64,000 bases of DNA from Candidatus Xenobia bacterium (lineage in GTDB: Bacteria > Vulcanimicrobiota > Xenobia > Xenobiales > QWHO01): the NCBI GenBank assembly GCA_045863235.1, contig BTUM01000013.1:32001-96000 (forward strand), given 5' to 3'. The translations under genes and the position numbers were made by a program. The notes below the pieces were generated by a model, which was not told where the DNA came from, did no database searches, and saw only the letters and a program-made list of their open reading frames with translations. Shown in pieces: positions 19,951 to 34,172 of this stretch (its first letter is position 1; each line of letters starts with the position of its first letter).

Positions 19951-21514
19951 CAGGTCGACGGCCTGGGCCTGGTCGAGCTAACTCCTGAGCGCAGGCGCTT
20001 CCTGGAGCAGCGCCCCGACCTGCTGCAGCAGCCTGTCTCCGAGGTGCCGGTCCCCGAGAGCATGCGCCACCTTCCTCGGTCTTCTTCAGCTGGGAAGAAA
20101 GCCGCCGATCGGGAGGGCCTGAGCAGTCTCCAGCAAGGCTACCAGGGAAGTTCAGCCGATCACCTCGCCGGTTACGAGGGATCTGAGATGTTCTCGCGGG
20201 CCGCCCAGCGAGCTCTGACCCCCGTTTTCCAGGCGCTCCTGACCCCTGACCAGGGTCGATCTGACATCCCGAACCCTTTCGACGCTCAGGATCTTCGCGA
20301 GTTGGTCGCGCCCGAAGGGCAGGGGAAATATCAGACCTATCGCGAGTTTGCTGGCCTGGAGCAGGGTGCACCCTATGCCAGCGGGGGCACACTGCCGCCA
20401 CCCGCCACCGCACACGAGCGCCTGCAACGAGAAGCGCTGGTGACCCTGGCGGAGATGCTCACTCCTGACGTAGATGCGATCACAGAGGTGGCCACCGCGG
20501 GAGCGCCCTCGCTACTGAAGAGACTGGGCCGCACTGCCTCGAGGATGTCCCGCGGCCGAGCTCTCAGCCGCCTGCAGCCCAGCGTTCCCCGGGGACAGGT
20601 TCAGGAGATGGTCGACGCTGCGGCGACAGGGGCGCCCGTCCAGGTCGCAAGCCCCCAGGTTCAGGCTCGACTCGAGCGACAAGCCGACCTGGCCGCCGAC
20701 ACCGAGACACCGGCCCGGCCGCTGGCGCAGTTGGCCGAGACTGAACGGCAGCTTGCTCAACCGCGACCGAGGCCGGCGGGCCCTAAGAGTGCCTACGAGC
20801 TCCGCAGGGAGCTGAGACGCTCCCGAACTGCCGACGATCCCAATGTTGCTTTCGATGAGTTCACAGAGAGCCTCCAAACGAGGGCACCGGATGACCCGAA
20901 TGATGCCTTCGACCGCTATGCCGAGGGGTTGAGCAGGGCCGCGAGTGGTTCCGCCCGGTCGGAGGAAAGTCCCTTCTTCCCCTCGCCCGAGTTTGAAGGA
21001 ATGGGCCCCCAGGGCTCGAGCGCGCTCGAGTTGTCTCACGCCACCCGGCCCGACGGCGAGATGGTTCGCCCGGAACTCTCGCTCGAAGACCTCGAGCTGC
21101 GCCTGAATCGGCCCAGAGCAGAACCAGAAGCGCCGGCCCTTCCGGCCCCCCGCCCGCCCCGGCGGCGCCAGGCTCGCAAGCCCCTTATCCAGGAGATCCT
21201 CGAGGAAGTGGACCAGGTCGACACGTCACGTGTCTCTCCCGCCGAGGAAGCTCGAGCCCGGGTTGAGGTGGTCTCCGACCTGTCCGATACCGAGGCCGCG
21301 ACAACAGCACCCACCGTCAGCCCCGAGCAGACGCGCGCCTGGGCCCGGACCCTTTCTCGTTGGGACCAGCTCCAGCAGCCCCATCTGGTGGCCGCCCGTC
21401 AGAGTGGCCAGGATGTCAACGCCGTCCGCGAGTGGTTCCGCTCAGTCGAGCCGCCGGAAGTCTCCGAGGCCCGCACCCGGCTTGAGCAGCACCTCGCGGC
21501 CCAGAACGCCCCCA

Positions 21515-21681
21515 CTCCGACCCGGGTCGACCAGGTGGACCCACCGATACCTCGGGCAGCCCCGACCGGGCCCAATGTCGATCAGGTGGTCCCGCCCCTA
21601 CCGGCCGCTCGAGCTGCTGACCCGGTCGCTCCGACCCGGGTCGACCAGGTGGACCCACCGATGCCTCGAGCAGCCCCGACC
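21515..21681 (+). repeat. 53-nt direct repeat (PTRVDQVDPPxPRAAPT x2) with a diverged intervening copy
   Basis: 21515-21567 vs 21629-21681, two mismatches. Confidence 0.9.
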
Positions 21682-24600
21682 CGGCCAACCCTCGACCAGG
21701 CTGCCCGGACGGCGCCGAGCGCGGCCGACCAGTGGCAGTCCCTTCGAGCCCCCGACTACGTTCGCCCCGAGGGCGGTGGCCGGCGTATCAAGCTCACCCA
21801 ACGGGACAAAGTCTGGTGGCCGACATGGACGCCCGAGCAGCGCCGCAACGTCCTGGGCAGCCGAGGCCGGGCTCGGGTCGGCATGGACTTTGAGCCTGAC
21901 GCGGCCGGCGTGAGGCTCGCACCCGACGAGCCGCCAACCGGGGGGACGACGCCCCGAGGCTCTCGTGCTGCAGCGGCCCAGCAGAGACTGGATGAGGCTG
22001 GCGAGTATCTGGCCCAGAAGAGGGCGGCTGCCGCCGAGGCGGCCAGCAGCGGACGCTTCCGGGAGCAAGCGGCTCGCGAGCTGGCTCAGGCCGAAGAAGA
22101 CCTGGAAGTCGCCAAGAACCAGTTCAACAGTTCAATCGCCTCGTATAGCAGGACGAGGCGCGCCCGCCCAGGACGGCCTCCGATCTGCGACGCGAGATGG
22201 CTCAGAGTCGGGGGAGCGAGGTCGATATTCTCGCCTCGACAAACCGAGACACGCTGAACCTCGAGCAGGCCAGACAGCGCCTGGGTGGGCCTGAGCAGAA
22301 GGAGATGCTCAGGCAGTACCGGGCTATCGATGAGAGCGAAGGGATCGGTCGGGTTGAGTACCTATCGCAGCTCGGTGTCTACGAGGATTCAGTGGAGAAC
22401 ATGGCCATCTCGCGGATCCATGGAAGGGTGCACGACGAGTCGTTGATGCGGGCCGCAGCGAAGCGAGGCACTATCGACCCGACGGACCCACAGAAGGAAG
22501 TCGCCTTCTGGCACAGTGGAGACCGCCGCTCCGGCCTCAGTCACCAAGACCCTCAAAGATACCGGTCGGCTCATCGCTTTGTCTTCTCAGCCCCGGACGG
22601 GATGACCCTGGAGGACTTCCACAGAATTCTGGGGAAAAGGTTCACCAGCTACACGTTCGACGATTCAAACGGCCTGCGAGCGCTTGTGGTAACCTCCTAC
22701 GACAACGCGGCCGAGATGCGGAAGGTCCTCAATGAGTTCGAAGAGTTCATCGATGCGAACGGCTTCCGACTGGAAGCGGCCGACGACGGCTACTTCCGAC
22801 GAGTCTTCCGGGACGAGTATGAAGGGATCCTCAGGGCCGACCCTGGAGGAGATGCGCCTCGCCCGCGAGGAGATTCTGGGCCACCTGCTCCCCAAGGACC
22901 GAAAAGCACCAGAGGGCCACCTGGTGGAGATGTACGGCAAAGGGACGGCTCCGGCCCCCGAGTAGGCCAGGACGCCGGCCCCTCCGGCGGACCCGCCCCG
23001 AGCTACACCGTCGACGGTCAGCGGGTCGAGCTGGCTGGCATCCAGACCCACCCCCTCCACCCGAGTTCGCTCGTCCGCCTGGCCAAGGAGCTGAGCGGGA
23101 AGGTCGAAGTCTCCGAGGCCCTCCAGGAGCTGGGCCGGCGCATGGGCGGCCGGGTGCGCGGCCGAGTGAAGGGCCGCAACATTGAGCTTGAGCCCGGGGT
23201 CTGGCGGGACCCGAAGGAGGCGGCGCGGGTTCTGGGCCACGAGATCGGCCACCTGCCCGACTGGGTCCCGAACATGGACCCCGAGACCATGGGGGGGCGG
23301 GTCAGCCAACTGCGCAGTAAGATGCGCGCCCACTTTCGGTCTATGTCGCAACCGATGCGCGCCGAGCTGCTCGAGCTCTCCAAGTGGTGGCGCCCGTTCG
23401 ACGAGCAACAGGCGACGAAAGACTACATGCGTTACCGAGAGGACCCCGAGGAGCTCTTCGCCGACGCTATCAGCCTGCTGCTGAACAACCCGGCCGAGCT
23501 GCGCCAGCGCGCCCCGCTGTTCTGGGCCCAGATGGAGAAGTTCCTGTCCGACAACAAGGAGATGCAACAGCTCCTGGCGCGCGCCTTCGACGAGATGAGC
23601 GGCACCATGGACGACCTGGCCGAGGGGCTGCACCACCGGATCACCGCCGCCTGGGCCGACGGCGATGCCTTCCTGCAGGACCTGGCCCACGCGGCCGAGC
23701 TGCGCAAGATGAGCCTGTGGGAGCGGCTGCGTCAGCAATGGCAGGCAAAAAAGCACCAGGCTGAGCGCGACTTCTCCGACCGGGGCGCCTACCTCAAGCG
23801 TCGGGCCGAGGAGCTGCGCAAGCAGGGCAAGGAGATCCCTGTTGATCTCGACCCCACTGTGAGTTCAACCTGGCCGGCAACAAGCTCTGGGTGGCCAGCC
23901 GCGACTGGAAAGACAACGTCATGGACGTGCTCGAGCAGGCTGACCTGGCCGGGTTCGACCTGGGCAGCTACATGCTCAATCAGGCGGCCACAAGCGGCTC
24001 CCTGCGCGGCGTGGCGCTGCCCGAGGGACTGACGGCCGACCTGGCCGCCCTGGACCGGCTGACTCGCGGGATGTCCCCCGAGCAGGTGCAGGCGGTCGAG
24101 CGGGCCGCCCGGGGAGCCCGAGACGTCTTCTACCACGCCCTGCGAGACGGGGTGGAGGCGGGCACCATCAGCCGCGAGATGGCCGAGCAGCTCGAGGCCA
24201 CGCGTGACTTCGTGCCTCTGGCCGCTCGCGAGATGAGGGGACGCATCCCCGAGGAGATCAGGCTCCAGACCCGGGGCACCCTGGACTCTATCCGCGACCC
24301 TGCGGTGGCCCTGCTCCACGACGCGCTCGAGTTGCACAACCTGAACACCTCCAACCACGCCAAGCTGCGCGCCACCCGGTTCGCCGAGCTGGCGGGCGAC
24401 CCGGTGGTGGAGCTGGCCGAGGGTGCAAAGCCACCCCGGGGCCTCGAGCCCCTGGAGGTCTACCAGAACGGCCAGGTCAAGCGCTATGCGGTGGCCCCGG
24501 ATCTGGCCGAGGTCTTCCAGCGGGTGGAGCTCGGGCCCATCAAGCTCTGGACCGACTTCCTGACCCAGGAGGACAACCTGTTTCGCTGGCTCTGGATCGC

Positions 24601-24966
24601 GGCCAGCCCGATGTTCCACGCTAAGAGCTTCGTGCGCGACCTGTTGCGCTACGTGCGCAACATGTCGTCCCTGGGCCACCTGCGCTGGTGGGACCCGACC
24701 AACATCGTTCGGGCGCTCGGAGACTACGCCAGTGTGATCCGCCCGGCCCTGGCCTACGCCTTTGATGCCTCCGACCTGGCCCGATTCGGGTTCAGCCCTC
24801 GGCAGATCGACGAGTCGAAAGCGCTGGTGCGCCAGGCTATCGACGAGTTCGCGCTGGTCCCACCCGAGGACAGCATCGCCGCTCAGATCGCCGGCAACCT
24901 GACCAGCGGGCGCGAGCAGCTGGCCCGCTACTTCGACCCCAACGCGGCCGAGCAAACCCGTGGCAC

Positions 24967-25148
24967 CATGAGGATCATCATGAGGATCCTGGCCCGTCCC
25001 ATCATATCGGCTGGCCAGGTGCTCGAGAGCACCCGTGGCATCCTGGGCCGTCGCATCACCCAGGCTGGCCGTCGCATCACCCAGGTTGGCCAGGTGCTCG
25101 AGAGCACGTCCATCACCCAGGTTGGCCAGGTGCTCGAGAGCACGTCCA
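24967..25148 (+). repeat. Cluster of nested in-frame tandem duplications (12, 21 and 36 nt)
   Basis: CATGAGGATC x2; GGCCGTCGCATCACCCAGG x2; 36-nt unit 25075-25110 equals 25111-25146. Confidence 0.9.
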
Positions 25149-26307
25149 AGCTCGCCGCCTACCGTCGCATCGCCCGCCAGGGGCGCGTCTCGGTGGCCGA
25201 GCGAGCGGCCCATATCCGCGACTACGTAGGCATGCCGAACACCACCATCTCCGGCCGCCTGACCCCCATCAGCAATCGGCTCTTCATGTTCAGCAACGTG
25301 GCCCTGCAGGGCTGGAAGGCCGACCTGCGCCTCCTGAGCAAGCCCAGTTCGGCTCTGGGTGCCTGGACCCAGATGTTCTACCAGACCCTCTGGCCCACCG
25401 TGGCCATGAGCGCCGGGCTGGCCGGGCTGTTCGGCCGCGACGTGCAGGTCGCGCTCGAGGCCATCCCCGAGCGCGACCGGGAGGGCTCGTTCGTGATTCC
25501 CCTGGCCGTCCTGACCGGCGGTGAGCACGGCCAAGCCACCGGCTATCTGTCCATCCCGCTCGACCCCACGGCCAAGTTCTTCCGGGTGGCCACCTCGCGC
25601 GTGCTCAACCAGCTCGCCGGCGTCGACCCGCGGCCGATGGAGAGCACCATCGGAGCGCTCTTCAAGAGCGTGGTGGACGAGATCCCATCCGGCAGCCCCT
25701 CCATGGCTCTGGCCGCCAACTGGGTAAGCATCATGGCCGGCGAGAACCCGACCGACAGCTTCGGGCGGCCTGTGCTGACCTCGAGCGAGCAGGACGCTGG
25801 CTGGCAGGCCCGCACCAAAGGGACGCTGCGCTACACCGCCGGCCAGTTCGGCCCGATTGGCAAGGGCCTCTCCAGGCTGCTGGGTCCCTACAAGCCGGGT
25901 CGCAACGACGAGGGCATTCTGGCCTGGGCAGCCAGTATGCCCGGGCTGAACGACTACATCAAGATCTCCGATTACGGCTACTCCGAGCAGCAGCGCCTGC
26001 GCCGCGAGCTCGACACGCAGGCTCGGGCTCGACGCAAGGAGAGCTACGGGGCCAAGACCCGCTACCTCTACGACGAGATGAACCGGCTCAAGCGCCTGGG
26101 CGGGCAACGCACCGCCCAGCAGACCCGGGCTTACCAGTTCCTGGACGTGTTCGAAGGCCAACTGAAGGCCGTGGACGAGCAGGTCGCCCGGCTTGAGACG
26201 GTCGGCAAGCACCGCCAGGCTCAGGCATTGCGCCAGCGCTTTGAGCGCAGCCAGGCCGAGGGGATGGCTGCGGCCTACAACCGACTGACCAGGAGGAGGT
26301 GACAACG

Positions 26308-26571
26308 ATGGAGGACACGACTCAGACCACGATCGTGGGGGCAATCTGCGGCCTGCTCGGCACCCTGGCCGGCGGGTTCGGCCAGCGCTGGCTCTCCAAC
26401 AGCCACCAGCTCCGCTCGAGTGAGATCGAGTATCTGCGCACCCAGCTGGCCGAGCTGCGCGCGGACTACGACGCCCTGCGTGCCGACTACGACGCCCTGC
26501 GAGACAGCCTGGCCGCGGCCCGGCTCGAGCTGGCGCTGGCGCGCCGGGAGATCGCCAAGATGAGAGAGTAG
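26308..26571 (+). CDS. Small TM plus coiled-coil protein, putative holin/lysis accessory
   Basis: AGGAGG SD; one TM; ADYDALR x2; directly upstream of the amidase. Confidence 0.55.
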   Translation: MEDTTQTTIVGAICGLLGTLAGGFGQRWLSNSHQLRSSEIEYLRTQLAELRADYDALRADYDALRDSLAAARLELALARREIAKMRE

Positions 26572-26579
26572 GAGGCCCC

Positions 26580-27122
26580 ATGCCACTCGTGAAGCCAACC
26601 ATCGTCACTCGCGCCCAGTGGGGGGCGCGCCAGGCCGACGTGGCGCTCTATGACGCCACAAACGAGACCGACCTGGCCAAAATCTACACCCGGCTGACCG
26701 TCCACCACGAAGCCCGCCCCGCTCCCGAGCGCATGACGCTCGAGCAGGGCAAAGCTCGCATGCGGGAGATCCAGGCCCAGCACCAGGCCCAGGGGTGGTC
26801 CGACGTGGGCTATCACTACGTCATCGACCGCGCAGGTCGCATCTACTCCGCCCGCACCCTGTTCGGGCCGGGGGCCCACGTGGCTGGCCGGAACACCGGG
26901 AACCTGGGCATCTGTCTCATGGGTGCCCTGCACCAGCAGCCGCCCACCCTGGCTCAGGTAGAATCCCTGATAGACCTGATGGCCTGGTTCTGCCACCGCC
27001 TGTCTATCAGCCCGGACCAGATCCAGGGCCACCGCGACCACCTGGCTACCGAATGCCCGGGTGAGCACCTCTACCGGATGTTGCCGGAGATCCGCACGCA
27101 GGTGCGACTTTTGCTCCCCTGA
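26580..27122 (+). CDS. N-acetylmuramoyl-L-alanine amidase (Amidase_2/PGRP, T7-lysozyme-like endolysin)
   Basis: VHH, GWSDVGYHYVI, GAHVAGRN, GICLMG, GHRD...TECPG. Confidence 0.92.
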   Translation: MPLVKPTIVTRAQWGARQADVALYDATNETDLAKIYTRLTVHHEARPAPERMTLEQGKARMREIQAQHQAQGWSDVGYHYVIDRAGRIYSARTLFGPGAHVAGRNTGNLGICLMGALHQQPPTLAQVESLIDLMAWFCHRLSISPDQIQGHRDHLATECPGEHLYRMLPEIRTQVRLLLP

Positions 27123-27123
27123 G

Positions 27124-27146
27124 CCTGTGTACCAATTTGTGTACCA
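27124..27146 (+). promoter_or_regulatory. Putative integrase arm-binding sites (TGTGTACCA x2)
   Basis: Tandem copies matching the left-end motif. Confidence 0.65.
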
Positions 27147-27248
27147 CCTGGACGCACACGGGGGAGTTTCTCGCGCAAGTCGCTCGAACATTTTGCGTCG
27201 TTACAGGATCCTCGCGCCTGGAAGACCATTCGCCTGGCCTGGCACTTA

Positions 27249-29596: not shown

Positions 29597-30748
29597 TCAG
29601 ACCCCAGTATAGCGGGCCCGCGGTCTGATCATCCAGCCCTGGCGGTACTGCTCCATGGCGTGAGCCAGCCAGCCCGCTGTGCGACCGAGTGCAAACAGAG
29701 TCAGAGGAGCTCCTGAGGGCAGAGACATGGACCGGGCCAGGCTGACCAACGCGAAGTCGAGCGAGGGGGGCCGCAGGTGCAGGCTCTCGGCAGCCTGGAG
29801 CAGCTCGCGCCCCAGGGCGCAGGCCGTCACCTTATCGAGCAGATGGCGCGCCCGGGGGTCTCCCTCGGGGTAGAGGGGGTGGCCGAAACCTGGGATGGGC
29901 TCGCCCCGTCGCAAACGGTCTTCCAGGGTGGGGCGGGCGCCGCGGTGGCTGGCCTCCTCGAAGAGTGCCGCCACGCGACGGGTGTGCCCCCCGTGACGAC
30001 CACCCTCCAGGGCTGCCAGGGCCGCGCCCACGACCGCGTAGGGACTGGCTTCGGCTGAGGCCACGCAACGGGCCGTGAAGGCGGAGGTGTTCAGCTCGTG
30101 GTCGGCGCACAAGATCAGGGTGGCCTCCAGGGCTCGCTCCGCGGCCGGGTTCCCGGGGGTCCACGCCGAGGCCAGGGAGCGAGCCAGCGGGCGCCCGGCT
30201 CGGTGCGAGTCGGTGAGACAGCGTCCGAGCAGGGTCAGGATGCGAGAGCCCGTGCGGCGAACGGAGTCCGGCTGGAGATCGCGGGCGGCCGGATCGGTGG
30301 AGCCGGCCGCCACCAGGACCAGCCGGAAGGCTTCAGTCGGCTCCAACCTGCTCGCCAGCTTGAAAGCCTCCTGCCAGGGGCCCGGGGGAGGGAGGCCAGG
30401 TCGGTGCTGACCTTCCCAGAGGAGCTCCACCACTTGCTCGAAGCACGTTCGCGAGGCCAGCTCGGTGGCCAGCTGACCGCGGTAATAGAGCTGGCCGTCT
30501 TGAATGCAGGTCAGCGCCGATTCCAGCACGGGGCTCCCCCATTGCAGGGCTTCAGCGGCCGCCTGCTCGGGATGGCGGCGATGGCGACGGCGGCTGGCCA
30601 GCCGTTCGACCTCCTCCTCTCGATACAGGCAGCGTCGTGTGCCCGGCTGGCCTTCGGAGCCGAGCAGGCCGCGACTGACGTAGCTATAAAGGGTGGCCGG
30701 GCTGACACCCAGCCGCCGGCAGGCTTCTTCGGCGGTGAGGTAACTCAT
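29597..30748 (-). CDS. HTH (excisionase/MerR-like) fused to citrate-synthase-family domain
   Basis: YLTAEEACRRLGVSPATLYSYVSRG; ADHELNTSAF, GFGHPLYPEGDPRA, GRTAGWLAH. Confidence 0.9.
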   Translation of the reverse strand: MSYLTAEEACRRLGVSPATLYSYVSRGLLGSEGQPGTRRCLYREEEVERLASRRRHRRHPEQAAAEALQWGSPVLESALTCIQDGQLYYRGQLATELASRTCFEQVVELLWEGQHRPGLPPPGPWQEAFKLASRLEPTEAFRLVLVAAGSTDPAARDLQPDSVRRTGSRILTLLGRCLTDSHRAGRPLARSLASAWTPGNPAAERALEATLILCADHELNTSAFTARCVASAEASPYAVVGAALAALEGGRHGGHTRRVAALFEEASHRGARPTLEDRLRRGEPIPGFGHPLYPEGDPRARHLLDKVTACALGRELLQAAESLHLRPPSLDFALVSLARSMSLPSGAPLTLFALGRTAGWLAHAMEQYRQGWMIRPRARYTGV

Positions 30749-30756
30749 GTTGATTG

Positions 30757-30787
30757 CTTGATCAAGATTGACGAACCAGATCAATCT
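30757..30787. promoter_or_regulatory. Operator palindromes between the divergent citrate synthase genes
   Basis: CTTGATCAAG (30757-30766) and AGATTGA-9 nt-TCAATCT (30765-30787). Confidence 0.6.
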
Positions 30788-30828
30788 ATACCATGATGGG
30801 CGCGAGTGGAGCAAGGAGGAAGCATCGG

Positions 30829-31872
30829 ATGACAACCGGTTTGGAAGGCGTAGAGGTGACCCAGACTCACCTCAGTCGGGTGGACGGGATCAAGGGGGAG
30901 CTCGTGCTGCGGGGCCGACGACTGGAGGAGTTGGCCGGCAAAGTCAGCTATGAGAGCGTATGCGGGCTCTTGTGGGAGGAAGAGGAGGTCGAGCTGGGCA
31001 GAGCCCGGGCTCTGGCCTACGCCCAGTTCGAGAGCTGGTTCGAGCGAACCGACGGGCTGACCTATCCCGGAGCCCTGCGCCTGTTGCTCACCATCTTGCG
31101 TCCTGAGAGCGAGGTGAAGCCTCACCATCTCGCCGCCGGGGCGGTGGCCGTTGGCCTGGCCAACGTGATCCGGCGCCGTCGAGGATTGGCACCGGTGGCC
31201 CCGCGGGCCGAAGTGGGTCAGGCTCAGAGCCTGCTCGAGATGCTGGAAGCTGGCCCTGTCGAAGAGTCGCGCTGGAAAGCGCTGGAGGCCTATCTGGTCA
31301 CCGTGGCCGAGCACGGGCTCAACCCGTCCACCTTTACCGCGCGAGTGATCGCCTCCACCGGGGCCGAGCTCTTTCCTACCCTGGTGGGCGCGCTCTCCGC
31401 TTTAGAAGGGCCCCTTCACGGCGGAGCTCCAGGCCCGGTGTTGGACATGCTGGATGCCTGCCAGGCCGATCCGCGGGGCTGGATCCGCGAGCAGCTGGCC
31501 CGCGGTCAGCGCTTGATGGGCTTTGGGCATCGAGTCTACCGGGTGCGCGATCCCCGCGCCGAAGTGCTGAAGCGAGCGGTGCTGACGCTGGCTCAGAGCC
31601 CACGCCTGGCGCAGGCCGAGACGGTCGAGCGGGTGGCTCTGGAAGAGCTGGCCCGGCACAAGCCGGATCGGCGCCTGGAGACCAACGTCGAGTTTTACAC
31701 CGCCGTTCTGCTCGAGGCCGTCGGGCTACCGCGAGAGGCGTTCACGGGCGTGTTCGCGACCGGACGGGTGGCCGGCTGGTCGGCCCATTTCTATGAGCAG
31801 AAGCACGGGGGCCGCCTGCTGCGCCCGGTCGCCCGCTACGTAGGTCCAGAGCCGGCGAACGGAGAAGGCTGA
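30829..31872 (+). CDS. Citrate synthase / methylcitrate synthase
   Basis: GLEGV, EHGLNPSTF, GPLHGGA, GFGHRVYRVRDPRA, NVEFY; AGGAGG SD. Confidence 0.92.
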   Translation: MTTGLEGVEVTQTHLSRVDGIKGELVLRGRRLEELAGKVSYESVCGLLWEEEEVELGRARALAYAQFESWFERTDGLTYPGALRLLLTILRPESEVKPHHLAAGAVAVGLANVIRRRRGLAPVAPRAEVGQAQSLLEMLEAGPVEESRWKALEAYLVTVAEHGLNPSTFTARVIASTGAELFPTLVGALSALEGPLHGGAPGPVLDMLDACQADPRGWIREQLARGQRLMGFGHRVYRVRDPRAEVLKRAVLTLAQSPRLAQAETVERVALEELARHKPDRRLETNVEFYTAVLLEAVGLPREAFTGVFATGRVAGWSAHFYEQKHGGRLLRPVARYVGPEPANGEG

Positions 31873-31875
31873 TGG

Positions 31876-32412
31876 ATGAGAAAGACCACCTTCTTCCTGC
31901 TCAGCGCGGCCATCTGCGTGCTGGGCGCCCTGGCTCAAACCTCGGGCCTTGCACCGGGAGACTTTGCGCCTGCCTACGATCCCACCCACGTGGCGGGGCC
32001 TGACAAGGGCACAACCACCTGCCCGGTTTGAAAGTACGGCCCCAGACCTGCGGTGCAGGTCTATCTTCAAAATGAGACCCCGGCCAATACCGTGGCCATC
32101 GCCAGGGTGCTCGACGAGGCCGTCAAACAGCACCAGAAAGCCGAGTTCAAGGCTTTCATCCTGTTCAAGCCGGGTGATCCGGCTGAGGCCACCCTGGTCA
32201 AGCTGAACGCCCCTGGCGTGGGGGTGGCCACCTTGCAGGGTGAGGCCATTGAGGCGCTCAAGCTGTACAAAGTCAGCTCCGACCCCAAGGTGAAGAACAC
32301 CGTGATCTTGTATCGCAAGCGAAAGGCCGCCGAGACCTTTGTCAATCTCGACTGCACTCGGGAGGCGGGCCGAAAGACCCTGCTCGATGCGATCGCTCGT
32401 CTGAGCAAGTAG
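31876..32412 (+). CDS. Putative secreted selenoprotein, thioredoxin-like CxxU (178 aa, Sec at codon 52)
   Basis: Signal peptide MRKTTFFLLSAAICVLGALA; TTTCPV-TGA-KYGPRPAVQV continues in frame to TAG at 32410-32412; SECIS-like hairpin after the TGA. Confidence 0.8.
32044..32062 (+). promoter_or_regulatory. Bacterial SECIS-like hairpin
   Basis: AGACCTGC-GGT-GCAGGTCT; stem starts 12 nt after the TGA (32029-32031); G/GU apical loop 20 nt after it. Confidence 0.7.
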
Positions 32413-32471: not shown

Positions 32472-33077
32472 ATGGACATCGCAGCAACAATCGCTGAAGC
32501 TCGCGGCGCTCTCGCCGAGGGTCGAGCCAAGGACGCCCTGGGTCTTCTGTCCGACGTACTCCGTGAAGACGTGGCTTGCGAGCCGGCCCACGACCTTGTC
32601 TTCGACATTCTTTCCGAGCCGAGTCAGAATCTCGAGCTGGTTGAGTTCTATCGCGACCTTCTCAAAGTTCACGTCGAAGATACCGAGCTGACCATCCGCC
32701 TGTCGCGGGCTTACGCTCAGGGCAACAAGGATTCGCTGGCCGTCCTTCAGCTGCAGAAGATCCTGAAGAAGGAAGCCAATCCCAAGGCTTTTGCCGAGTT
32801 GGCCCGCACGTACGGGCGGATGAACAAGATCCGGATGGCCCTGGAAGCGATCAACAGCGCCATCGCCGCTGACCCCTCCTATGGCGCGGCTCATCGCGAG
32901 CGTGTGCGCCTGCTCACAGCTTCGGGCGAGAAGGATGAGGCGGCCGTGCATGCCGTCGACTCGCTTTGTTGTGCCGAGCTCGACCCCGACACCCGGGCCT
33001 GGCTGGAGGTGGCCGACGCCTTTTTAGAGGCCGGCCACAATCCCCCCGATGGCTTTCTGCACAACGGCAAGGCCTGA
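32472..33077 (+). CDS. TPR-repeat protein
   Basis: Helical repeats (LSRAYAQG, AFAELARTY, AIAADPSY). Confidence 0.75.
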   Translation: MDIAATIAEARGALAEGRAKDALGLLSDVLREDVACEPAHDLVFDILSEPSQNLELVEFYRDLLKVHVEDTELTIRLSRAYAQGNKDSLAVLQLQKILKKEANPKAFAELARTYGRMNKIRMALEAINSAIAADPSYGAAHRERVRLLTASGEKDEAAVHAVDSLCCAELDPDTRAWLEVADAFLEAGHNPPDGFLHNGKA

Positions 33078-33120
33078 TTTTCAGCTCTTTGTAAGAGCTA
33101 AAGGGTAGCCTTGGCAGGCT

Positions 33121-33699
33121 ATGACACTGACTTCTCTACCGAGCCTTTCGGCCGGACCGGCCGCCCAGAAGAGTCGCCCCCCTCGAACCGCTCTTCAAAA
33201 GCATGTTGATTTCTTTGACCGCAATGGCGACGGTCAAATTCGCGTTTGGGAGACCTACCAGGGTTGCCGGGCGCTGGGGATGGGGCGGCTGCTCTCGACT
33301 GGCGCAGCCGTGGCCATCAACCTGGCCCTGGGCATCAAGAGCGGGTCGCCCTGGTATAAGCTGCTCACGATTCAGACGGATGGAATTCACCAGGGAAAGC
33401 ACGGGGGAGACACGGGCATCTATGACGCCGACGGCAACTTTGTGCAAGCCAGGTTCGACGCGATGTTCGCCCAGCACGACAGCAACTCCGACGACGCGCT
33501 CAGTGAGGCCGAGGTCGAGCAGATGCTGGTCGTGAATGGAGGCGGCCAGCCCAGCCTGGGCTCCAAGGCGGAGTTTGGCCTGCTGATGAAGCTGGCCGGG
33601 GAGGACACGCCCGACGGGCGGGTGCTCACGCGCCAGCGCCTGGAAGCTTTCTACGACGGCTCACTCTTTTACCAGCTGGCCGGGGAGAAGGTCCCCTGA
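33121..33699 (+). CDS. Caleosin-family protein (EF-hand, peroxygenase-like)
   Basis: TALQKHVDFFDRNGDGQIRVWETYQGCRALG, IHQGKHGGDTGIYD, EFGLL, FYDGSLFY. Confidence 0.88.
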   Translation: MTLTSLPSLSAGPAAQKSRPPRTALQKHVDFFDRNGDGQIRVWETYQGCRALGMGRLLSTGAAVAINLALGIKSGSPWYKLLTIQTDGIHQGKHGGDTGIYDADGNFVQARFDAMFAQHDSNSDDALSEAEVEQMLVVNGGGQPSLGSKAEFGLLMKLAGEDTPDGRVLTRQRLEAFYDGSLFYQLAGEKVP

Positions 33700-34172
33700 G
33701 ACTCGAGATTCTCCCCACCCTGATCATCGTGGCAGCGGTCGTGTTGACGGCCGTCCTCGGGGCCCTGGCCACCAACCCGCAAAGTGCCTGGTATCTCGAG
33801 CTGGTCAAGCCTTCCTGGCAACCGCCCGGGTGGCTCTTCGGGCCGGTCTGGACGCTCCTTTACGCGCTCATCGCCACCAGTGCGGTCATCGTCTGGCATG
33901 CGACCGAGGGAAACGCTCGCCGCGAGCTGATGCTGCTCTTTGCCGTCAACCTCATGCTCAACCTGGCCTGGAGCGCGCTCTTCTTCCGGGCTCAGTCGCC
34001 GCTGGGAGGCGGGGTGGAGATCATCCTGCTGCTGGGGTCTATTGCCCACCTTGGCTGGCGTTGCTCCAGCCTCAGCCCGGTTGCGGCCTGGCTGCTAGCC
34101 CCCTATTTCGCCTGGGTAGCCTTCGCTACCATCTTGAACTGGACGATCGCCATCTTGAACTGGGAGAAATGA
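33696..34172 (+). CDS. tspO: TspO/MBR family protein (probable CTG start; first canonical start at 33729)
   Basis: WY..LVKPSWQPPGWLFGPVWTLLY, LNLAWSALFF, PYFAWVAFATILN. Confidence 0.9.
   Translation: MRLEILPTLIIVAAVVLTAVLGALATNPQSAWYLELVKPSWQPPGWLFGPVWTLLYALIATSAVIVWHATEGNARRELMLLFAVNLMLNLAWSALFFRAQSPLGGGVEIILLLGSIAHLGWRCSSLSPVAAWLLAPYFAWVAFATILNWTIAILNWEK

Follow-up and report, generated by a model that had tools for sequence, protein, structure and literature searches.

A candidate exported selenoprotein with a TlpA-like predicted fold and an apparently displaced Cys-x-x-Sec pair in a Candidatus Xenobia bacterium

The list of bacterial selenoproteins comprises 119 families or subfamilies (PMC13188914). 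As far as Table 1 of this source goes, the thioredoxin-fold members are Prx-like proteins of PF00578 with the motifs UxxC and UxxU, Redoxin proteins of PF08534 (UxxC), UGC-type TlpA proteins, Prx (TxxU), Prx-SUH NF045827 (CxxU) and Trx7/PDZ NF041199 (CxxU) (PMC13188914). For the bSECIS hairpin the consensus given there is a stem of 4-16 bp with a loop of 3-9 nt at a distance of 16-37 nt from the UGA, a G within the first two loop positions and an MFE of at most -7.5. Here we describe a gene in a stretch of 64,000 nucleotides from a Candidatus Xenobia bacterium (the window). We give a probability of roughly 0.6 to the overall reading that this gene encodes a genuine selenoprotein, which is exported, TlpA-like and carries a displaced Cys49/Sec52 pair with a redox role. 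With the catalogued thioredoxin-fold selenoproteins it shares the UGA at a Cys position, a hairpin within the coding sequence, the pairing of Sec with Cys and the (predicted) thioredoxin fold, but the motif and its place differ, and none of the 87 aligned members of its family matches their models beyond noise. The catalogue entries that have a CDD identifier or a representative only, for example the cd02966 and cd02970 types, differ in their listed motifs (UxxC, UGC and UxxS versus CxxU).

The gene starts with an ATG three bases past the TGA stop codon (31870-31872) of a citrate synthase gene, within the 3' end of which the candidate ribosome-binding site is located, and its frame holds one TGA, at codon 52, after which 126 codons follow until the TAG at 32410-32412 (Table 1). 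The GTG start codon of the 119-aa ORF falls inside the hairpin loop. The start position, the frame open beyond the TGA and the truncation by gene callers had all been put forward in a first-pass annotation; the first two are confirmed from the sequence and the third is borne out by the database entries. The TGA is covered by contigs from four of four runs, belonging to four studies, with no alternative letter listed, and an assembly error is therefore ruled out; the TGC or TGT that the first-pass annotation had named as evidence against a Sec codon does not occur in these independent contigs. All eight listed differences within the gene are located past the TGA, affect the third base of a codon and read as synonymous. 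Contigs of RNA libraries span the gene in two studies, although contigs cannot show transcription, and a scan for promoters and terminators revealed nothing tied to the gene.

Table 1. Position of the gene and of its predicted features in the window.
Feature	Position	Strand	Remark
Read-through gene	31876..32412	+	178 aa, putative Sec at residue 52; homologues match both flanks of the TGA
In-frame TGA, inferred Sec codon	32029..32031	+	Codon 52, TCPV*KYG
Possible ribosome-binding site, purine-rich GGAGAAGG	31861..31868	+	Sequence reading; putative function
Probable signal peptide, residues 1-20	31876..31935	+	Putative cleavage after ALA
His38	31987..31989	+	Present in 82/87 aligned sequences
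C-P-V-U motif (Cys49, Sec52)	32020..32031	+	Model: short helix preceding the first core strand
SECIS-like hairpin, 8-bp stem, GGU loop	32044..32062	+	Folding and conservation
119-aa ORF, reported by gene callers instead of the full gene	32053..32412	+	ORF list; database entries P0002, P0003

The genome, which is 97.6% complete, contains selA, selB, selD and the gene for tRNA-Sec (selC), all of them over the cut-offs and all located on contig C23; the anticodon loop of the tRNA has UCA, and selD carries an in-frame TGA of its own. A lack of selA, selB and selC, which had been named beforehand as grounds for giving up the Sec reading, is thus not the case. Besides SelD, further selenoprotein candidates, named from their motifs, are FdhA, a SelW-like protein, two thioredoxins and a peroxiredoxin-like protein (contigs C36, C122, C4, C86, C14 and C23, that of SelD included). 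The genes for FdhA, both thioredoxins, the SelW-like and the peroxiredoxin-like protein show the TGA at the expected place in a genome-wide scan, which is a crude filter that also passes many false candidates. No paralogue of the gene described here was found in the same genome. Judged from the sequence, the TGA at codon 52 is almost certainly decoded as Sec: following the standard bacterial pathway, and since all four parts are encoded, SelB would bind the hairpin that closely follows the UGA and deliver the Sec-tRNA(UCA). That the UGA is instead a true stop of a split gene or pseudogene, a codon reassigned to Trp or Cys, or a site of leaky read-through is scarcely credible. TGA terminates 2213 of the 3359 long ORFs of the genome and is otherwise its main stop codon, so that there is no global reassignment. 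Moreover, both flanks of the TGA are conserved, the hairpin being still unaltered at 62% identity, and where a stop codon stands at the motif it is always TGA and never TAA or TAG, nor was TGG seen there. The linkage of the TGA copies to selA and selB, which is described below, likewise speaks against a UGA that is not Sec, whereas a Trp in one homologue and some TGA copies in which no hairpin is evident would fit it.

In an alignment of 87 sequences, Cys49 is invariant (87/87) and position 52 is occupied by Cys in 84 of the 86 homologues, with Trp in one and Ser in another. Homologues with Cys or TGA at this position and conservation on both sides had been predicted in the first-pass annotation, and a prevailing non-Cys residue, which would have told against Sec, was not encountered. 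The family is large, with matches of its profile to 1041 clusters (50% identity), and a metagenome pattern permitting any TGN at the motif gave at least 119 matches, at least 108 of them distinct, with TGC or TGT in 90, TGA in 18 and TGG in none among the matches listed. Close relatives are labelled "bacterium CPR1" and "Candidatus Eremiobacteraeota", the latter being 86% identical; a 94% identical copy is encoded in a record titled Burkholderiales (L024), a title that may be a mislabel. The family has a match in 13 of 301 genomes of the phylum, and 11 of 11 within the order carry TGA at the motif. All 14 relatives that were tested for selA have it. Within the class there are also two genomes in which the copy has Cys although selA is present. 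In the Armatimonadota, the phylum of a Fimbriimonadaceae locus, 72 of 251 genomes match, of which 25 hold 27 copies with TGA at the motif; selA is present in 24 of these 25 genomes versus 20 of the 47 without a TGA copy, and the single genome with a TGA copy but no selA match does have selB. Cys-only Bacteroidota genomes had selA in none of five tested. As the genomes counted are related and incomplete, these counts overstate independence, and no probability is attached to them. As a side observation, the selA match of genome G336 (C1:1103614-1104993), whose family copy is a Cys form, includes one TAG.

Sec and Cys have been exchanged repeatedly in this family, with nine changes on a tree of 111 rows, at least four of which are forced by strong branches; this tree is a quick search for which 111 of 161 rows were kept and 50 Bacteroidota-type rows were thinned out. 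Tandem paralogues, one with Cys and one with TGA, are present at L026:1429-2549 and G504 C46:4295-5583, the former flanked by two ORFs which we take to resemble the halves of a carbamoyl-phosphate synthase large subunit. Among the best 150 library matches 27 start just past the motif, which suggests that many more family members may be truncated Sec forms. The 120 listed members are annotated as "hypothetical" or, wrongly, as protocatechuate dioxygenase, and none is named a selenoprotein. In Bacteroidota (L027-L038; P0034 and others) the family domain follows a dioxygenase-like domain in proteins with an N-terminal signal and often an extra CxxC, and the dioxygenase label has spread from these fusions onto stand-alone members. 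The C-terminal domain of the Bacteroidota "intradiol ring-cleavage dioxygenase" fusions belongs to the same family in its Cys form, behind Dioxygenase_C, with 25-33% identity, an identical TCPVCKYG motif and Cys in all copies seen, and has no name of its own.

The hairpin consists of the stem AGACCTGC/GCAGGTCT with a GGT loop, begins 12 nt past the TGA and has a folding energy of -12.5 kcal/mol, and hence the perfect 8-bp stem with a GGU loop that was originally noticed is confirmed. Taken alone, it is weak evidence, only modestly beyond chance: the folding z values are -2.2, -1.2 and -1.7 for three window lengths, for which 3, 25 and 12 out of 200 shuffled sequences reach the same stability; among 5000 synonymous recodings, 159 yield a stem of at least 8 pairs with a loop G, and 36% of the recodings are as stable; and an equally strong hairpin is found at 36 of the 1043 coding-like TGAs of the genome. 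We regard as the decisive control the comparison of Cys and TGA genes that code for the same RPA(V/C)Q peptide, in which the hairpin is present in 14 of 15 TGA copies versus 0 of 12 Cys copies, and the fifteenth TGA gene retains the stem via a G-U pair. The hairpin employs the rare codons AGA (2% of the Arg codons) and CCT (11% of the Pro codons). Its conserved core is a stem of 6-7 bp with a 5-nt loop and G as the second loop base. Armatimonadota copies from three different branches have exactly the same hairpin sequence. One compensatory change was seen (L050), and no covariation among nine close sequences, in which six of the seven pairs never vary. Of the seven sister-family copies, six (L043-L046, L048, L050) carry an additional Cys in the first core strand, which is encoded within the hairpin loop.

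Scored with a simple in-house scorer, the hairpin agrees with the bSECIS consensus (a loop of 3 nt, a stem of 8 bp, G at the first loop position, a distance of 20 nt and -12.5 kcal/mol), and all properties of a bacterial bSECIS selenoprotein that can be computed are found in this putative member of the class. With the same kind of simple scorer, a consensus-type hairpin at -7.5 or better is present in 12 of 35 distinct TGA copies versus 1 of 48 Cys copies. The loop of the hairpin in the genome's own FdhA gene lies 18 nt past the UGA, compared with 19-20 nt here, and the SelW-like gene also has a hairpin at a nearly equal distance. In common with the bSECIS of the E. coli fdhF type are the short stem, the G in the apical loop and the consensus distance, but the loop has 3-5 nt here, the lower stem is not conserved, and elsewhere in the family there are clades with a different hairpin or with none that is evident. 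One TGA clade (L219-L232, and in metagenomes L055, L072, L082 and L114) has a different, longer hairpin, which begins about 18 nt past the UGA and has an 8-nt loop, and in the most divergent TGA copies (L234-L242) no common hairpin is evident.

The N-terminus contains a hydrophobic stretch with a 10-residue mean hydrophobicity of up to 2.8, which recurs in 82 of the 87 aligned members, and the type I signal-peptide pattern of a basic n-region, a hydrophobic h-region and AxA is visible, as judged by eye and hydrophobicity only. Residues 1-20, which have low pLDDT in the model, probably form a cleavable signal peptide through which the protein would be exported, as the first-pass annotation had supposed. 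For the remainder, the AlphaFold2 model (pLDDT 93, confident over residues 21-178) resembles the TlpA/DsbE/peroxiredoxin folds, with Z values of 16-17.6 for TlpA-type structures; the best match is the DsbE structure 3gl3 (Z 17.6, rmsd 2.2), of which 138 of 141 residues are aligned collinearly. This is in line with the proposed thioredoxin-like fold, at a sequence identity to the matched solved structures of just 7-19%; of two sequence searches of solved structures, one gave no match and the other a single match at E 0.057. Taken together, the proposal of an exported thioredoxin-like selenoprotein has passed its computational tests for Sec recoding and fold, and its export is probable. With TlpA, ResA and DsbE(CcmG) (PDB 3gl3, 8t4c, 4grf, 2f9s) the protein shares the predicted fold, the order of elements, the G..aP.F start and, probably, the export signal. 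However, membership in TlpA/DsbE was rejected, as both the defining CxxC between the first core strand and the following helix and the cis-Pro are absent, and in the model the CxxC/U is instead located on the preceding short helix.

The position of the motif follows from several comparisons. The elements of the model are H50-54, E59-64 and H69-85, and those of a modelled TlpA-like control protein of the same genome are H39-42, E47-52, the CxxC and H59-72; element by element, CPVU hence corresponds to the "SLSxFxG" helix that precedes the strand. No Cys is present at residues 59-74, the canonical place of the CxxC, in any of the 87 sequences, and the cis-Pro before the penultimate strand is missing, the column being K-N-T with no Pro among the common residues at 139-142. 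Two of three profile alignments, among them the global one, place CPVU/C before the strand, although all profile alignments are weak (probability 40-85). According to the model it is thus likely that the reactive pair is displaced onto the helix that precedes the first core strand. From the topology, the canonical and the present site would lie at opposite ends of the central strand. In an alternative reading the protein is a real but merely divergent TlpA-like selenoprotein, in which the pair is an ordinary thioredoxin-type site and the displacement an artefact of modelling or alignment. The low identity to solved structures and the third, local profile alignment, which pairs CPVC with the canonical motif, agree with this, but that alignment deletes a whole strand via two long gaps, and the confident model with its collinear match to 3gl3, the control protein and the two other profile alignments argue against it, which makes an ordinary site improbable. 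Of the CxxC-type motif claimed originally, the TGA at its second Cys position therefore stands, but apparently it is not the ordinary thioredoxin CxxC.

Searches of family collections did not assign the protein. NCBIfam (release 20.0) and Pfam each contain no family for it; in NCBIfam, the 87 members give only single-member matches (best E 0.006), and the AhpC-TSA and Redoxin models of Pfam stay below the cut-off, being matched by three of the 87 members (best E 0.0028) and by one of them (E 0.031). The models NF041199 and NF045827 have no match at the locus. For Trx7/PDZ neither a score over the HMM cut-off of NF041199 nor a PDZ domain was found, and for peroxiredoxins the PxxxTxxC/U motif is absent after the strand and the score stays below the HMM cut-off of Prx-SUH NF045827. 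Proteins of the SelW/Rdx type (PF10262, CxxU) likewise have Sec second in a CxxU motif, but no Pfam match exists here. The fold of SelW/Rdx is different and smaller, its motif following the first strand, and the genome holds its separate SelW-like candidate on C122. The family is absent from the catalogues compared, namely NCBIfam, Pfam and, as far as this table goes, Table 1 of PMC13188914. The families of Haft and Tolstoy (2025) were compared only as they appear in that table and in the NCBIfam scan. No description of the family is contained in the parts considered of PMC13188914 (Table 1), PMC12013277, bioRxiv 2022.07.06.499078, PMC4807772 and PMC13326102, and literature searches turned up none either. 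The suggestion that the family might be uncatalogued is thus borne out within this scope, since no NCBIfam or Pfam family fits the 87 members.

Concerning the function, we propose that the canonical thioredoxin active site was lost and that its role has passed to the Cys49-x-x-Sec52 pair of the short pre-strand helix, which would cycle between the selenol/thiol and the selenenyl-sulfide form. The pair might then serve a partner protein as an extracytoplasmic site for thiol-disulfide exchange or as an electron relay, and the Cys-only forms would fulfil this function wherever Sec is not employed. A redox role is probable rather than a metal-binding or structural one because of the repeated Sec/Cys exchange, the fusions of the family domain to thioredoxin, YceI, SGL and, in Bacteroidota, dioxygenase-like domains, and the extra N-terminal CxxC in 11 of the 18 long forms inspected. 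As an alternative, Cys49/Sec52 of a real selenoprotein could, together with His38, bind a soft metal (Cu, Zn, Hg, or Fe for a dioxygenase-like partner) as a chaperone or sensor. The conservation of His38 and Cys49, the loss of the canonical site and of the cis-Pro, the Dioxygenase_C fusion in 7 of 16 long forms scanned and a fold common to Sco copper chaperones, which are among the structural matches, are consistent with such a role, and in the part of their work considered Haft and Gwadz argue that Sec faces a metal in exported proteins of other kinds (bioRxiv 2022.07.06.499078). However, no metal-transport neighbour recurs across lineages and CPxC at a helix start is a typical redox geometry, so that we consider metal binding rather unlikely. 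Still much less probable is that the protein is exported but non-catalytic and that its pair forms a permanent structural bond (Se-S or S-S), comparable to the Cys-free YtfJ-like proteins of the thioredoxin fold. The export, the absence of the canonical site and the nearest named Atlas clusters, which are YtfJ-like (0.84-0.86, under 0.9, and therefore leads only), would fit this, but repeated Sec/Cys exchange and a conserved hairpin would be costly for such a bond, and the CxxC spacing would be strained.

The genomic neighbourhood does not indicate a conserved partner, as none of the neighbours within about 1.5 kb is shared between lineages. We reject a functional link to the citrate synthase, next to which the gene lies in genus-level loci only; since no neighbour is conserved beyond the genus, this adjacency is probably incidental. 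The citrate synthase gene (30793-31872, +) stands back to back with a gene for an HTH-citrate-synthase fusion (29597-30835, -), and downstream of the selenoprotein gene, at 32472-34172 (+), a TPR protein, a bacterial caleosin-like protein (Pfam E 2e-41) and TspO are encoded. Elsewhere in the window, the region of about 20000-27200 has long ORFs, a small, possibly holin-like ORF and an amidase-like ORF (26580-27122), which, going by the ORF list only, suggests a prophage or integrated element.

In the widest reading, to which we give about even odds, a large unnamed family gave up the thioredoxin site and evolved a second reactive CxxC at the opposite end of the central strand, where Cys and Sec were switched many times and an identical 17-nt SECIS occurs in two phyla; it would then represent a new type of exported protein for selenol/thiol redox reactions or metal handling. 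The finding would add a widespread family to the list of bacterial selenoproteins and point to the use of Sec in two little-studied phyla in which gene callers split the gene. The paralogue pairs with Cys and Sec, in which one and the same peptide is encoded either with the hairpin or without it, offer a ready natural test of a minimal bacterial SECIS. Should the model be right about the location of the pair, a second site for chemistry exists in the thioredoxin fold.
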